Origin: Campylobacterales bacterium
Lineage (GTDB): Bacteria > Campylobacterota > Campylobacteria > Campylobacterales > Sulfurovaceae
NCBI GenBank assembly: GCA_014763885.1
Contig: JACXUO010000001.1
Coordinates: forward strand, 62 to 64,061
Length of the DNA: 64,000 nt
Direction of reading: 5' to 3'
Of this stretch, positions 23,172 through 63,585 are shown one piece after another. The position numbers were made by a program, and so were the translations under genes. The notes below the pieces were generated by a model. It saw only the letters and a program-made list of their open reading frames with translations, ran no database searches and was not told the origin of the DNA. Each line of letters begins with the position of its first letter. Position 1 is the first letter of the stretch.

Positions 23172-23828
23172 TTAGAGTCTGATTTGTGCTGGCTGACTTG
23201 GCCGGGAAGTCGTATCGTCGTAACTCTTGGCAGTGATACGGTAACGGTACTCCCGCCCCCGTCTGACAAAGGTGTCGATATACTCCACCATGATCCTTCC
23301 TTTGACCTTGGCAAGATAGCGCCATGCTTCCCCGTTCACCGAACGCTCGATGATATAGCCATTGATACTTTCATTACCGTGCGGTCTCCAGAGCAGTTTC
23401 ACTGCACCTTCCCCTGCTTTATACGCTTTCAGGAATGAGACGCTTCGAAGCGGAGGCAAGGCGCGAACTTCGAGCCGGGCACCTGATGCGGCCTCTTTTC
23501 CAAAACGCAGCGTCTTGAAGGTATAGCGGTAGCGTTGTCCGGGTCTGACCTGTGTATCGACAAAATGCGTGGCATAGGCATTGGAGATCGTGGCTACCAG
23601 TCTCTCTTCACCCTCCGAGCTTCTGTAGATATTGATCCCGCGTACTCTGCTGTCTGTGATCTTTGCCCACTCGAAACCGATCGTGTTTCTCTGCGGAAGG
23701 GCCTTGAGATCCCGGAGTTTTGACAAAGAGGGATCACGCTCGTAAACCGTGATACTCTGCACAACACCGCTGCAGCCGTTAAACCCCAGTAAAACGGTCG
23801 CCAAGAGTACGAGGGTCGATCTTCTCAT
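23172..23828 (-). CDS. Fibronectin type III domain lipoprotein (two FN3 repeats)
   Basis: Lipobox FNGC; W...GINIYRS / W...GYIIERS...Y.YRI FN3 patterns. Confidence 0.8.
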   Translation of the reverse strand: MRRSTLVLLATVLLGFNGCSGVVQSITVYERDPSLSKLRDLKALPQRNTIGFEWAKITDSRVRGINIYRSSEGEERLVATISNAYATHFVDTQVRPGQRYRYTFKTLRFGKEAASGARLEVRALPPLRSVSFLKAYKAGEGAVKLLWRPHGNESINGYIIERSVNGEAWRYLAKVKGRIMVEYIDTFVRRGREYRYRITAKSYDDTTSRPSQPAQIRL

Positions 23829-24732
23829 CTATTTCACTTTCATCAAAATATTTTGCCAGATACGCCTGCATATCTCCAAAAAGCGGGGCGACAAACTCCA
23901 TCTTTTCTCCCGTTTCAGGATGTGTCAGATAGAGCAGATATGCATGCAGCTTCACCCGTGAAATTCTATCCCGTTTGCTCTTAAAGCCGTATAAATGATC
24001 CCCCAGTATATGCCGTCCCAATGTTGCCAGATGCACACGTATCTGGTGGGTACGTCCGGTGAAAAGCTTGGCAGCGATCAATTCTGTATCCACCCTGCTT
24101 TGCGCCAGTTTGACAAAGGCTGTTTTTGCCTCTTTGCCATGCGGTACGACATCCATCTTCAGACGGTTGTTCGGATTGCGTCCGATAGGCTTCTCTACAA
24201 CGGTATTTTCTTTGAGCGGATAGTCGATGAGGGCCAGGTAGTAGCGCCCCATGCTCTTATCCTGCAGCTGTTCGCTGAGCTTCTCATGGGTCTTGTTATC
24301 CTTGGCGATCACCAGCGCCCCGGTCGTCTCCTTGTCGATACGGTGCACGATCCCGTGACGCTCCTCTCCACTGATGGTGGAGAGCGATATCCCCCGCTGT
24401 ATCAGCCAGTCCACCAGGGTCGGCTCCTTGACCGAAGGTGCGGGGTGCACCACAAGACCTGCAGGTTTGTTGATAACCATCAGGTATTCATCCTCATAGA
24501 TCACTTCCACATCAAAGTCCACAGGCACTGCTTCACGTCTCTCCGCTTCTTTGAACTCATAAGTGATCTCATCCCCCTCTTCTACTTTGAAGCTGGGCTT
24601 ATTGATCGTCTTGCCGTTGACGGATACCAGTCCGTCCTTGATCAGTTTTTCGATCTGGTTACGGCTGACATCCAGCGCATTGGCTAATGTTTTGTCCAGG
24701 CGGTTTTTTTCTGTTACGCTAATTTTTTCCAC
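23779..24732 (-). CDS. rluD: RluA/RluD-family 23S rRNA pseudouridine synthase
   Basis: S4 domain RLDK; VINKPAGLVVHP; GIVHRIDKETTG; TGRTHQIRVH. Likely start is GTG 24732 (GGAG 6 nt upstream); the alternative ATG 24804 lies inside a REP copy. Confidence 0.9.
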   Translation of the reverse strand: MEKISVTEKNRLDKTLANALDVSRNQIEKLIKDGLVSVNGKTINKPSFKVEEGDEITYEFKEAERREAVPVDFDVEVIYEDEYLMVINKPAGLVVHPAPSVKEPTLVDWLIQRGISLSTISGEERHGIVHRIDKETTGALVIAKDNKTHEKLSEQLQDKSMGRYYLALIDYPLKENTVVEKPIGRNPNNRLKMDVVPHGKEAKTAFVKLAQSRVDTELIAAKLFTGRTHQIRVHLATLGRHILGDHLYGFKSKRDRISRVKLHAYLLYLTHPETGEKMEFVAPLFGDMQAYLAKYFDESEIDEKIDPRTLGDRFTGV

Positions 24733-24742
24733 TCTATACTCC

Positions 24743-24763
24743 GTAGGTTTGGCACTGCCAAAC
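24743..24763 (+). repeat. GTAG-family REP element, copy 1
   Basis: GTAG-GTTTGGCA-C-TGCCAAAC: tetranucleotide foot plus perfect 8-bp palindrome. Confidence 0.9.
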
Positions 24764-24789
24764 GTCCTTATCAATTCTTGATCTCTTTT

Positions 24790-24810
24790 GTTTATCCGTG
24801 CCATACCTAC
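24790..24810 (-). repeat. Degenerate REP copy 2, inverted relative to copy 1
   Basis: GTAGGTATGGCACGGATAAAC, 17/21 identical to the REP; contains the RAYT stop TAG and the ATG at 24804. Confidence 0.75.
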
Positions 24811-25328
24811 TCAAAATCAATACTCTCATCAAACACACCCCAATCATCATCATGATATCCGGCATCCATAAATTTGCCAAACGATGAATACTCCCACGCA
24901 GCAGCGCTAGGCGCAAACTTATGTTTTACGGGATTATAATGAATATAATTCAACCTTAGCTTATAATCTCTCTCATCCCGTATGGTATGCTCATAAAAAC
25001 GTTTTTGCCAGACAGGTTTATAGTGCTGCCCTTCTCTACTGTGGGATTGCATTAAATGCCGGTAATATTTCGGATCACAATGGGACGAGAAGTACCTTTT
25101 GATAGATCCAATGATTTTAGGATACTCCTTGACATCTTCAAACATCACTATCATATGGATATGATCAGGCAGTATAACGATGGCATCGATAGTGAATGAA
25201 AACTGACGTTTGACATGCGTGAAGCTTTCTCTTAAAAGCCCAATATTTTCGATCAATATCAGATTACGTTCATAGGTTACAAGGGTAAAAAAGTAGCTAT
25301 GTCCTTCTAAAAAAACTCTTCTATAATT
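24807..25328 (-). mobile_element. REP-associated tyrosine transposase (RAYT, HUH/Y1), probably start-disrupted
   Basis: NYRRVFLEGHSYFFTLVT...PDHIHMI (HUH)...WQKRFYEH.IRDERD...YIHYNPVKH...WEYSS; an in-frame TGA at 25331-25329 precedes the conserved N-terminus. Confidence 0.92.
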
Positions 25329-25348
25329 TCAAATGTAACCTTTTTACC

Positions 25349-25369
25349 GTAGGTTTGGCACTGCCAAAC
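25349..25369 (+). repeat. GTAG-family REP copy 3
   Basis: Identical to copy 1. Confidence 0.9.
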
Positions 25370-25460
25370 GTCACATAATACCCCGAACTGATTGAAATCG
25401 TTGTCTGCATGTCATTTGTAGGAAACACTTTATTCTCTTTATTTCATATTTCCCTGAGGC

Positions 25461-25481
25461 GTTTGGCAGTGCCAAACCTAC
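25461..25481 (-). repeat. GTAG-family REP copy 4, inverted relative to copy 3
   Basis: Exact reverse complement of copy 1; 91-bp spacer from copy 3. Confidence 0.9.
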
Positions 25482-25582: not shown

Positions 25583-26386
25583 CTAGCTCTCTTTTTCTAT
25601 ATCGTCTCTGTCCCAACGCTCCGGGTCAAGGAAGGTATCATCGTGGATATGCTTGAAGGAAGCCTTGATCATCTTGAAGATATCACTGTTTTTCTGTTCA
25701 AGCCCCGCAAGCCACTCTTTGGTAGCAGCTCTTGCATGTGGCATCTTTACATCTTTAAGCATCGCCGGACAGGCTTCATCACCGACCACCTGCAGGTTGT
25801 TGTCCATGGCAAACCCTCGCAGCTGCGACTCGCGTACCTGGATCAGCGGGCGGATCAGATGGAAGCCTTTGCCTGTCTTGTAGATCGGTGCGAGTGCTCT
25901 CATCGTACCGTTGTAGAACATATTCATAAAGAAGCTCTCAACGGTATCGTCGAAGTGATGTCCCAAAGCTACCTTGTTGAAACCGCCCTCCTGAGCAAAG
26001 CTGTAGAGCGCTCCCCTGCGCATACGTGAGAAGTAAGAACAGAAAGAGGAGTTCTCACGAATCGCATCCTGGCTGACATCGAAGATATTGGTATCATAGA
26101 CCGTATGTTTGATCCCGTACTTTGCACAGTGTGCAGAGAGAAAGTCGTAGTGCTCGTCAGGCATCCCATACTTCACGGTACACGCTTCAAACTCGAAATC
26201 AAACGGCGCATTGCGCTGCATATGCTTCAGTGCATGTATCAGCGAGAGGGAATCTTTTCCTCCGCTTAGTCCTACCAGTACCTTGTCCCCTTCGCCGATA
26301 AGTCTGAACTCGGCATTGGTCTTACCTATCACCTTGAGCAGTTTTTTGCTCATCGGTATGGTCGGAAATTCGTCTCTTCTACCCAA
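25583..26386 (-). CDS. ttcA: TtcA-family tRNA 2-thiolation / PP-loop ATPase
   Basis: GLSGGKDS, CSYFSRMRRG, ALGHHFDD, IRPL. Confidence 0.8.
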   Translation of the reverse strand: MGRRDEFPTIPMSKKLLKVIGKTNAEFRLIGEGDKVLVGLSGGKDSLSLIHALKHMQRNAPFDFEFEACTVKYGMPDEHYDFLSAHCAKYGIKHTVYDTNIFDVSQDAIRENSSFCSYFSRMRRGALYSFAQEGGFNKVALGHHFDDTVESFFMNMFYNGTMRALAPIYKTGKGFHLIRPLIQVRESQLRGFAMDNNLQVVGDEACPAMLKDVKMPHARAATKEWLAGLEQKNSDIFKMIKASFKHIHDDTFLDPERWDRDDIEKES

Positions 26387-61709: not shown

Positions 61710-61736
61710 CTGTGATAACACCTTGAAATGAGGCTT

Positions 61737-62005
61737 ATCACCGTACTAGATACCTACCCCGAATTTAATGCAGTGATTTCGTTCAGAATCAAGGCAGATT
61801 TTTGAAGGACTAGCCGTAGCTAATTTGAAAAAATCTAACGCAGGTTATGGGCGAAAGCACTGCACCCTTTGGGAAGAATGAAAAAGGACAATCTTCAAGC
61901 AAAAAAATCTTCGAATTACCTACAGGTAGTCCTTCAGATTTTTTCACTCACATCTCACCCTTCTTCAATCTTTTAAATGCTCGGGTAGGTATCTAGTACG
62001 GTGAT
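61737..62005. mobile_element. 269-bp non-coding element with perfect 23-bp terminal inverted repeats (MITE/ERIC-like)
   Basis: ATCACCGTACTAGATACCTACCC at 61737-61759 with exact reverse complement at 61983-62005; nested internal hairpins; no ORF. Confidence 0.7.
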
Positions 62006-62045
62006 TTACCTCGTGATAATTATCTCGTGATTGTACCCAAAAGAG

Positions 62046-62819: not shown

Positions 62820-62895
62820 GACCTATTAGCTCAGCTGGTAGAGCAACTCCCTTTTAAGGAGTGGGCCCATGGTTCGAATCCATGATGGGTCACCA
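62820..62895 (+). tRNA. tRNA-Lys(UUU)
   Basis: Cloverleaf; anticodon loop CTTTTAA; TTCGAAT; CCA. Confidence 0.97.
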
Positions 62896-62970
62896 TTTAA
62901 TTTTGTAGTTTTCCTCAGCGGAAGGCTCATGCAACGTTGTTGCTTTATTTATGACTGTTTGGATCTAGAT

Positions 62971-63046
62971 GACCCTTTCATCTAGTGGCCAAGGATGCTG
63001 CGTTTTCATCGCAGACACAGAGGTTCAAATCCTCTAGGGGTCGCCA
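62971..63046 (+). tRNA. tRNA-Glu(UUC)
   Basis: Anticodon loop TTTTCAT; TTCAAAT; CCA. Confidence 0.96.
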
Positions 63047-63059
63047 AATTGACAGTTAT

Positions 63060-63135
63060 GGTCGCTTAGCTCAGTTGGTAGAGCGCTACCCTTACAAGGT
63101 AGATGTCACAAGTTCGAGTCTTGTAGCGACCACCA
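63060..63135 (+). tRNA. tRNA-Val(UAC)
   Basis: Anticodon loop CTTACAA; CCA. Confidence 0.97.
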
Positions 63136-63206
63136 TTTAAATCTTGTCTTAATTTAAGGTTAAGGTGAGTATAATTTAAGCTCAAATTAAAATTTGAGAT
63201 TACGGT

Positions 63207-63283
63207 GCGGCGGTAGTTCAGTTGGTTAGAATACCTGCCTGTCACGCAGGGGGTCGCGAGTTCGAGTCTCGTCCGCCGCGCCA
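63207..63283 (+). tRNA. tRNA-Asp(GUC)
   Basis: Anticodon loop CTGTCAC; CCA. Confidence 0.97.
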
Positions 63284-63294
63284 CTATTTTAGGT

Positions 63295-63370
63295 GACCTA
63301 TTAGCTCAGCTGGTAGAGCAACTCCCTTTTAAGGAGTGGGCCCATGGTTCGAATCCATGATGGGTCACCA
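63295..63370 (+). tRNA. tRNA-Lys(UUU), second identical copy
   Basis: Same sequence as 62820-62895. Confidence 0.97.
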
Positions 63371-63391
63371 TTTTTATACATATTTTCATTT

Positions 63392-63467
63392 GGTCGCTTA
63401 GCTCAGTTGGTAGAGCGCTACCCTTACAAGGTAGATGTCACAAGTTCGAGTCTTGTAGCGACCACCA
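63392..63467 (+). tRNA. tRNA-Val(UAC), second identical copy
   Basis: Same sequence as 63060-63135. Confidence 0.97.
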
Positions 63468-63508
63468 TGTTTTACATTAATTTTTTTAATGTCATTCTTT
63501 TTATTGGT

Positions 63509-63585
63509 GCGGCGGTAGTTCAGTTGGTTAGAATACCTGCCTGTCACGCAGGGGGTCGCGAGTTCGAGTCTCGTCCGCCGCGCCA
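63509..63585 (+). tRNA. tRNA-Asp(GUC), second identical copy
   Basis: Same sequence as 63207-63283. Confidence 0.97.

Follow-up and report, generated by a model that had tools for sequence, protein, structure and literature searches.

REP-associated tyrosine transposases (RAYTs) and the repetitive extragenic palindromic (REP) sequences that accompany them are already described as REPtrons, as are GTAG-tagged REPs, dimers with their GTAG ends outside ('HH' dimers) and REPs that overlap the ends of a RAYT gene. In the REPtron of Escherichia coli K-12 (tnpAREP/rayT, with REP doublets known as bacterial interspersed mosaic elements; structure 4ER8), the transposase TnpAREP binds GTAG and a hairpin on single-stranded DNA (ssDNA), cleaves at a nearby dinucleotide by means of its tyrosine and rejoins the strands. 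Cleavage and rejoining of ssDNA next to a REP have been demonstrated for E. coli TnpAREP only, an enzyme whose C-terminal tail is autoinhibitory and built around a conserved glutamate. Here we describe a related locus at positions 24743-25481 of a 64,000-nucleotide stretch of DNA (the window) from a Campylobacterales bacterium of the Sulfurovaceae (assembly GCA_014763885.1, contig JACXUO010000001.1) that originates from a hot-spring metagenome. It is very probably a REPtron in which a domesticated RAYT lies between two REP doublets forming hairpins (REPINs), with a REP class scattered across Sulfurovaceae and a RAYT that was recently inactivated in the window strain.

Relation to described systems

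With E. coli, the window locus shares a near full-length protein alignment, the HUH motif, a tyrosine within YI(H/Y)xNP, the residues that contact GTAG and a C-terminal extension past the IS200 core. In both systems the gene is bracketed by inverted pairs of REPs with a 5' GTAG, and REPs are dispersed in intergenic DNA. The two nevertheless differ in several respects. The last eight residues of the window RAYT do not align with the autoinhibitory tail of the E. coli protein; REPs of E. coli and of most of subclass 2.2 have long bulged stems, whereas the window REP is a short perfect hairpin of 7-8 bp; and the host is a member of the Campylobacterota carrying a frameshifted gene rather than an enterobacterium. 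The REPIN-RAYT system of Pseudomonas fluorescens (Bertels and Rainey 2011, PMC3116915) is similar in that what spreads is a pair of inverted REPs together with the spacer between them, the RAYT gene occurs once and has its REPs on either side, and each RAYT has its own REP class, with several classes per genome. The P. fluorescens RAYTs, however, belong to Group 3 and bear the subclass 2.5 motif YI[VI]ANP in place of the E. coli-type YIHYNP of the window, and hundreds of copies are reported for Pseudomonas as against tens per metagenome-assembled genome (MAG) for the window class. The IS200/IS605 transposases (IS608 and ISDra2 TnpA) have in common with the window protein the HUH/Y1 fold family, ssDNA hairpins as substrates and a 5' tetranucleotide guide beside the hairpin. 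They differ from the window system in that the window protein scores under the IS200 cut-off, no multi-copy units of gene plus ends are seen and the repeats spread without the gene.

Closest in host is Sulfurovum sp. NBC37-1, which belongs to the same group and likewise has a GTAG-tagged REP found through its association with a RAYT. Di Nocera 2013 (PMC3733652) reported GTAG repeats in all proteobacterial divisions, the epsilon division included, and specifically in this strain, whose RAYT-associated REP (GTAGGGTGTTGTACCCCTACAACACC; 9-bp stem, C4 loop) has been studied biophysically (Charnavets 2015, PMC4690160). The window REP (GTAGGTTTGGCACTGCCAAAC) has a different stem. Hence the suggestion of the initial annotation, that the family might be undescribed in Campylobacterota, has to be narrowed: GTAG REPs and a RAYT-associated REP are published for NBC37-1, whereas the stem class apparently is not. 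No paper describing the GTAGGTTTGGCACTGCCAAAC class was found in the literature searched. The 113 exact matches of our genome scan include none titled NBC37-1, and the carriers of the class are all uncultured MAGs. The window REP appears to be a new sequence class of the known REP/RAYT system, with a stem class unpublished in the searchable literature. Our findings leave the general picture of REP/RAYT function unchanged; they add to the Sulfurovaceae, mostly uncultured sulfur oxidizers of caves, springs, vents and sediments, a well-populated REP class and a cognate RAYT clade.

The RAYT protein

Profile and Protein Data Bank (PDB) matches identify a gene of the TnpAREP-like Y1/HUH type on the minus strand at 24807-25332, with a TTG start at 25332-25330 and a TAG stop at 24809-24807. 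When the frame is repaired, the product is 174 amino acids long; its HUH motif is formed by H57/H59, its catalytic tyrosine is Y129 within YIHYNP, the signature given for TnpAY1 subclass 2.2 (the E. coli group), and its predicted GTAG contacts are W108, Q109, E114, H115 and R118. The NCBIfam model for REP-associated tyrosine transposases (NF047646, REP_Tyr_transpos) is matched from end to end (profile positions 1-146 of 146) with 151.3 bits against a cut-off of 80, the IS200 model NF033573 reaches 31 bits, under its cut-off of 55, and Pfam Y1_Tnp scores 33 bits. Of all PDB sequences, only E. coli TnpAREP (4ER8, E 2.3e-22, residues 2-166 on 3-152) is matched significantly; the next best, the IS200-type transposase 2F4F, has an E value of 0.21.

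In the alignment with the E. coli protein, the HUH segment LPDHIHMIV of the window stands opposite LPEHMHCIW (DHIH against EHMH) and the tyrosine segment NYIHYNPVKH opposite DYIYINPVKH. Furthermore, VWQKRFYEHTIR aligns with IWQPRFWEHAIR, and there the residues that read GTAG in E. coli (W94, Q95, E100, H101 and R104) are identical in five of five cases. Judged by sequence, the window protein is a member of the RAYT family and the copy a predicted pseudogene; the frameshift makes it a pseudogene of that family and does not place it outside the family. The assignment to RAYTs rather than to IS200/IS605, made in the initial annotation, is upheld by these matches.

Repeats flanking the gene

The 21-mer GTAGGTTTGGCACTGCCAAAC occurs exactly at 24743-24763 (plus strand), 25349-25369 (plus) and 25461-25481 (minus), against an expectation of 0.00 matches in 100 dinucleotide-preserving shuffles of the window. 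A fourth copy, GTAGGTATGGCACGGATAAAC, matches at 17 of 21 positions (24790-24810, minus). Each REP comprises a 5' GTAG and a hairpin of 7-8 bp (GTTTGGCA-C-TGCCAAAC), and the copies are arranged as two inverted pairs whose GTAG ends lie outside, one on each side of the RAYT gene: doublet A (24743-24810; 68 nt with a 26-nt spacer) downstream and doublet B (25349-25481; 133 nt with a 91-nt spacer) upstream. The three identical copies, the degenerate one, the paired arrangement around an HUH/Y1 gene on the minus strand and the small hairpin in the downstream spacer are all as the initial annotation had reported them. Its description of the REPtron as complete cannot be kept, given the frameshift that follows codon 2 of the RAYT and the decay of one REP arm out of four.

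REP1 (24743-24763), the outer arm of doublet A, has a predicted ssDNA fold of -6.4 kcal/mol (z -2.75) and is conserved exactly at the orthologous position of locus L030, a MAG labelled Sulfurimonas sp. Kbt 03 that is the nearest among GTDB species representatives, a set that does not include the window genome. Its CTAC end, read on the minus strand, adjoins the GGAG Shine-Dalgarno sequence (24742-24739) of the neighbouring rluD-like gene. Spacer A (24764-24789, 26 nt) is 96% identical to its L030 counterpart and contains the palindrome ATCAA (24770-24774)-TTC-TTGAT (24778-24782), which forms the tip of the predicted ssDNA fold and has a stem of only 5 bp. The decayed inner arm, REP4 (24790-24810), is also degenerate in L030. 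It retains four of eight stem pairs, and its predicted fold of 0 kcal/mol indicates that the hairpin is lost. The TAG of its GTAG (24809-24807) doubles as the stop codon of the RAYT gene, an arrangement also present in loci L030, L091 and L070; the GAG-TAG overlap involves an exact REP in L091 and a compensatory stem variant in L070. Close orthologues all end in (I/V)D(F/Y)E followed by the stop, with GAG-TAG at this point, and their last glutamate codon and stop overlap the REP foot (24807-24812 in the window). This terminal glutamate might play the part of the conserved one in the autoinhibitory tail of E. coli TnpAREP.

On the upstream side, REP2 (25349-25369), the inner arm of doublet B, lies 16 nt upstream of the RAYT start codon, with a possible AAAGG ribosome-binding site in between. 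Spacer B (25370-25460, 91 nt), 78% identical to the orthologous L030 spacer, separates it from the outer arm REP3 (25461-25481, minus strand; exact 21-mer, inverted-repeat pair I5). As ssDNA, doublet B (25349-25481) is predicted to fold into a single long hairpin (-28.3 kcal/mol, z -5.8).

Pairing of RAYT and REP class

The layout of the window is repeated around eight further RAYT orthologues with 60-81% amino acid identity (L030, L091, L005, L080, L070, L217, L146 and L215), each with the identical REP class on its flanks. More distant RAYTs, with 56-61% identity, have GTAG hairpins of their own: GGTGGAA/GGTGGAT stems in L086 (997-1524, MAG QKDN) and GGTCGAT/GGTCGGT stems in L089 (2739-3200, MAG JADGDQ), both arranged GTAG-inside at a distance of about 26-32 nt. 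Two RAYTs are thus present in QKDN, and each is accompanied by a separate REP class, one of the two classes being that of the window. Close orthologues with the window REP and diverged RAYTs with different REPs make a pattern that is expected from the pairing of an enzyme with its substrate and not from coincidence. A single RAYT orthologue was seen per MAG, the MAGs being incomplete.

Dispersal of the REP class

One genome per prokaryotic species was scanned with the query GTAGGTTTGGCANTGCCAAAC, which returned 113 stretches in 26 assemblies, of which about 24 bear the label Sulfurovum, Sulfurovaceae or Campylobacterota. These stretches hold 141 exact REP copies and a further 50 with one to three mismatches, up to 29 exact copies coming from one fragmented MAG, and a scan of metagenomes yielded at least 120 stretches that carry the REP. 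(Logan contigs searched with a 53-nt REP stretch caught fewer copies than with the long stretch.) Only seven of the 113 genome stretches contain a RAYT gene, and almost all exact repeats have no transposase gene beside them; many related genomes have dispersed repeats that the gene does not accompany, and, in keeping with the initial annotation, the repeats are not simple insertion-sequence ends. They are also largely intergenic, with 13 of the 141 exact copies (9%) inside open reading frames (ORFs) of at least 120 amino acids as compared with 79% of positions drawn at random from those loci.

Of the 141 exact copies, 72 have an inverted closest partner with GTAG outside, three an inverted one with GTAG inside and 10 a tandem one; 56 are single. 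Start-to-start offsets are specific to the genome: 115, 149 or 172 nt in DYMA, 111-113 in QKDN and 40 or 67 in JASFZJ. Within the DYMA MAG, doublets have spacers that are 94-99% identical and flanks at background identity. Near-identical doublets with unrelated flanks imply that the doublet is the unit that spreads.

The stem is maintained by compensatory change. The pair C11:G15 is replaced by T:A in nine variants with more than 60 copies, T8:A18 by G:C and G5:C21 by A:T. Over 26 variants (from a list that was partly hand-picked) 96.7% of cells are paired, three of the seven pairs show double changes, and none of 500 shuffles reaches the observed covariation. The flanks of the REP have a pyrimidine at -1 in 84% of cases and G at +1 in 70%. 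On its 3' side the hairpin is followed by G and then two pyrimidines rather than by a T run, so that a reading of the REP as a Rho-independent terminator was rejected.

Two matches were set aside. That in L026 (Porphyromonadaceae UBA7180) is a single copy within a 767-amino-acid ORF, at a level where about one chance match is expected (20 fixed bases, 596 Gb). L062, labelled as a Chloroherpeton thalassium MAG and seemingly a carrier outside Sulfurovum, is probably a mis-binned Sulfurovum contig; the spacer of its doublet resembles that of DYMA locus L098 from the same sample.

Some doublets are more elaborate. Those of 149-172 nt in DYMA (L020, L103, L104, L023) and JQIS (L037, L097) enclose an inverted pair of a second GTAG REP class (GTAGGTGCGATCATATCGCAC / GTAGGTGTGACCGTGTCACAC), and this nested pair is one REPIN inserted inside another. 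In JASFZJ (L014, L015, L043, L101, L102, L106), doublets with the 67-nt offset have one exact arm, the other being a fixed variant with compensatory changes, GTAGGTTTGGTATCACCAAAC. Similarity extends into the 60-nt flanks of these doublets (65-88%), which implies that the repeated unit there is longer than the doublet. L030 has two extra REPs with two mismatches, at 2117 and 2144, that are missing from the window.

The frameshift allele

In the window, one extra base follows codon 2 of the RAYT gene (25325-25326, minus strand), so that the start reads TTG AAA TTA TAG instead of the TTG AAA TAT AGA (M K Y R ...) of other populations and of the outgroup. The RAYT frame is one base off the TTG start (T TGA AAT TAT AGA AGA ...) and has no usable in-frame start at this point; the next, a TTG at 25256, would cost 25 residues. 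Orthologues begin with MRYRR, MKYKR, MANYRR or (TTG)NYKR.

To compare alleles, public assembled contigs were aligned to the locus. The base at 25325 is present in X1 (depth 52), X4 and X6, three samples of one hot-spring study, which carry the window allele. It is missing from X2 and X3, of a microbial mat study, and from X7, an algae metagenome of a further study, where TTG AAA TAT AGA opens an intact ORF of 174 amino acids. Since the outgroup L030 also lacks the base, its insertion is derived. The two allele groups differ by seven single-nucleotide polymorphisms (SNPs) and one indel over 1701 nt (about 0.5%), and the differences are concentrated in the gene, with six SNPs in its 526 nt compared with one in 1175 nt of flank. 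Of the six in the gene, five are non-synonymous (L24P, G101E, P141D, V166A). With L030 as outgroup, at least four of the six arose in the window lineage, including the loss of Pro24, a residue conserved in seven of seven orthologues and replaced by leucine in the window allele. This pattern of SNPs and indel fits a RAYT that was probably inactivated recently and is drifting under relaxed selection, and does not fit sequencing error. The L030 RAYT (2445-2966) has an independent frameshift of its own: its start, TTG AAA TAT (MKY...), is intact, and one base is missing in the T run after MKYRRVFLDGHSYF.

The proposed explanation is that a single-copy domesticated Y1/HUH transposase gene of the TnpAREP type is bracketed by two inverted doublets of its cognate REP. 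If the intact protein works as TnpAREP of E. coli does, it would bind GTAG and the hairpin on ssDNA; its tyrosine would cut nearby and form a covalent 5'-phosphotyrosine link, and the strands would then be rejoined. The likely outcome is that REP doublets are copied or moved into intergenic DNA. In the window strain, the extra base behind codon 2 and the derived substitutions, one of which removes the conserved proline, would leave the RAYT inactive, and doublets A and B would persist as old immobile relics held in common with the sister species. If the RAYT is inactivated, these doublets should be immobile and any REPIN population in the window strain should be decaying. The polymorphism between intact and broken RAYT in near-identical populations is the one feature worth follow-up: it constitutes a natural experiment, with populations about 0.5% apart whose RAYT is either intact or freshly broken, and it bears on the published prediction that REPIN populations decay after loss of the RAYT.

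Alternative explanations

The locus could instead be an ordinary IS200/IS605-type insertion sequence whose four hairpins are subterminal ends and which transposes as a whole, gene included. The Y1_Tnp domain match points that way, as do the resemblance of hairpins with a 5' tetranucleotide to the ends of IS608-type elements and the bracketing of the L091 gene by two 99%-identical direct doublets. These points are outweighed by the preference for the RAYT model over the IS200 equivalog (151 bits against 31 bits, the latter under its cut-off of 55), by the lack of significance of IS200/IS605 structural relatives (E 0.21), by the 141 exact repeats that nearly all lie away from a transposase gene, by the single orthologue seen per MAG without multi-copy units of gene plus ends, and by a position that is stable between two species some 15% apart in nucleotides. 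We regard an insertion sequence as exceedingly improbable. It could also be supposed that the hairpins are host regulatory elements (mRNA stabilizers, terminators or protein-binding sites), that selection for such roles explains their abundance and that the adjacent RAYT is incidental. The REPs are indeed extragenic, REP1 adjoins the rluD ribosome-binding site, REP2 sits just upstream of the RAYT start, and E. coli REPs are known to have secondary roles of this kind (PMC3733652). Yet the absence of a T run 3' of the hairpin, the nine independent RAYT orthologues flanked by the window REP while diverged RAYTs have different REPs, and the duplication of whole doublets with unrelated flanks make this very unlikely as the primary explanation. 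A secondary host role is compatible with a REPtron.

Other alternatives concern the state of the gene. The RAYT might not be dead, should a +1 ribosomal shift at TTG AAA T/TAT restore MKYRR..., should the frame be subject to phase variation or should a shorter active protein be made from TTG 25256. If one base after AAA is skipped, the N-terminus is exactly that of the intact allele, no stop interrupts the remainder of the 172-codon frame, and the independent early frameshift in the L030 T run indicates that such events recur. There is, however, no known shift-prone signal, and a 0-frame stop lies one codon past the slip site. The derived non-synonymous changes, with Pro24 turned to Leu at a residue conserved in seven of seven orthologues, and a SNP density in the gene more than tenfold that of the flanks, as expected under relaxed selection, also speak against a working protein; the product from 25256 would lose the first 25 residues and with them, by the 4ER8 alignment, the first beta-strand of the HUH core. 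A surviving activity is accordingly very unlikely. It is tempting to speculate that the recurrence of early frameshifts in this lineage (after codon 2 in the window, in a T run 12 codons later in L030) reflects an on/off switch by reversible single-base slippage, or a +1 recoding rescue at TTG AAA T/TAT; this is a long shot, but were it true, a RAYT frameshift switch would gate bursts of REPIN movement. Lastly, the extra base could be an error of assembly or sequencing and the RAYT intact in the window strain, single-base indels by short runs being a common type of error and the evidence coming from contigs, not raw reads. Against this, three samples that were assembled independently (X1, with a depth of 52, X4 and X6) all show the window allele, three other runs show the alternative one just as consistently and the indel co-segregates with six SNPs, so that an error is highly improbable.

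Several observations nevertheless weigh against a REPtron with a dispersed REPIN population. Further REP copies were sought across the 64 kb of the window at up to six mismatches, and none was found beyond the four described. Spacers A and B have no match other than L030 among 234 loci, and no dispersed copies. No RAYT was seen in the blocks examined of the REP-rich MAGs JASFZJ and JQIS, where it may be elsewhere or missing, and all reference genomes are incomplete MAGs. Within the metagenome runs used for the allele comparison, the REP is also found on other contigs of similar depth, either singly or in doublets whose spacers measure 46 and 100 nt (three contigs in X1, four in X3 and two in X7); the three to four such contigs are a lower bound, and they may belong to relatives of the window strain. 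Among the metagenome loci there was no contig of the window organism.

Locus context and other features

The REPtron is preceded by a ttcA-like gene (ATP_bind_3; 25583-26386, minus strand) and followed by the rluD-like pseudouridine synthase gene (23779-24732, minus strand), which has a likely GTG start at 24732-24730 and 89% amino acid identity to its L030 counterpart. The order mtnN-ttcA-[doublet B]-RAYT-[doublet A]-rluD is common to the window and L030, at about 85% nucleotide identity, and L030 also has the already-decayed inner arm of doublet A as well as spacer A. Because the decayed arm and the spacers are common to L030 and have no match elsewhere, doublets A and B are long-standing residents of the locus rather than recent insertions. 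Synteny of rluD and ttcA around the RAYT was found only in L030 among the loci compared, and vertical inheritance past the sister species is not demonstrable. At an orthologous REP locus of the sister species (L016) the intergenic content differs, a comparison swamped by conserved and high-depth sequence.

The rluD-like ORF as listed (341 amino acids, ATG at 24804) is over-extended through doublet A; the junction of GTG, GGAG and REP1 is also present in L030. Here the 21-mer is of practical use in annotation, marking intergenic repeats that break assemblies and explaining over-extended ORFs such as this rluD start.

Elsewhere in the window, an intergenic inverted repeat of 30 nt with 90% complementarity (61730-61759 / 61983-62012, arms 223 nt apart) lies upstream of a tRNA cluster. 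In its arms, which have the sequence GG-GTAG-GTATCTAGTACGGTGAT, the GTAGs point inward; between the arms, at about 61918-61929, is the palindrome CCTAC-AG-GTAG. The 21-mer of this repeat has no match in the 234 loci, and it could be a miniature inverted-repeat transposable element or an element of the terminal-inverted-repeat type from another family. The tRNA cluster itself (62820-63585) runs Lys(ttt)-Glu(ttc)-Val(tac)-Asp(gtc)-Lys(ttt)-Val(tac)-Asp(gtc) and includes a near-identical duplicated Lys-Val-Asp block.

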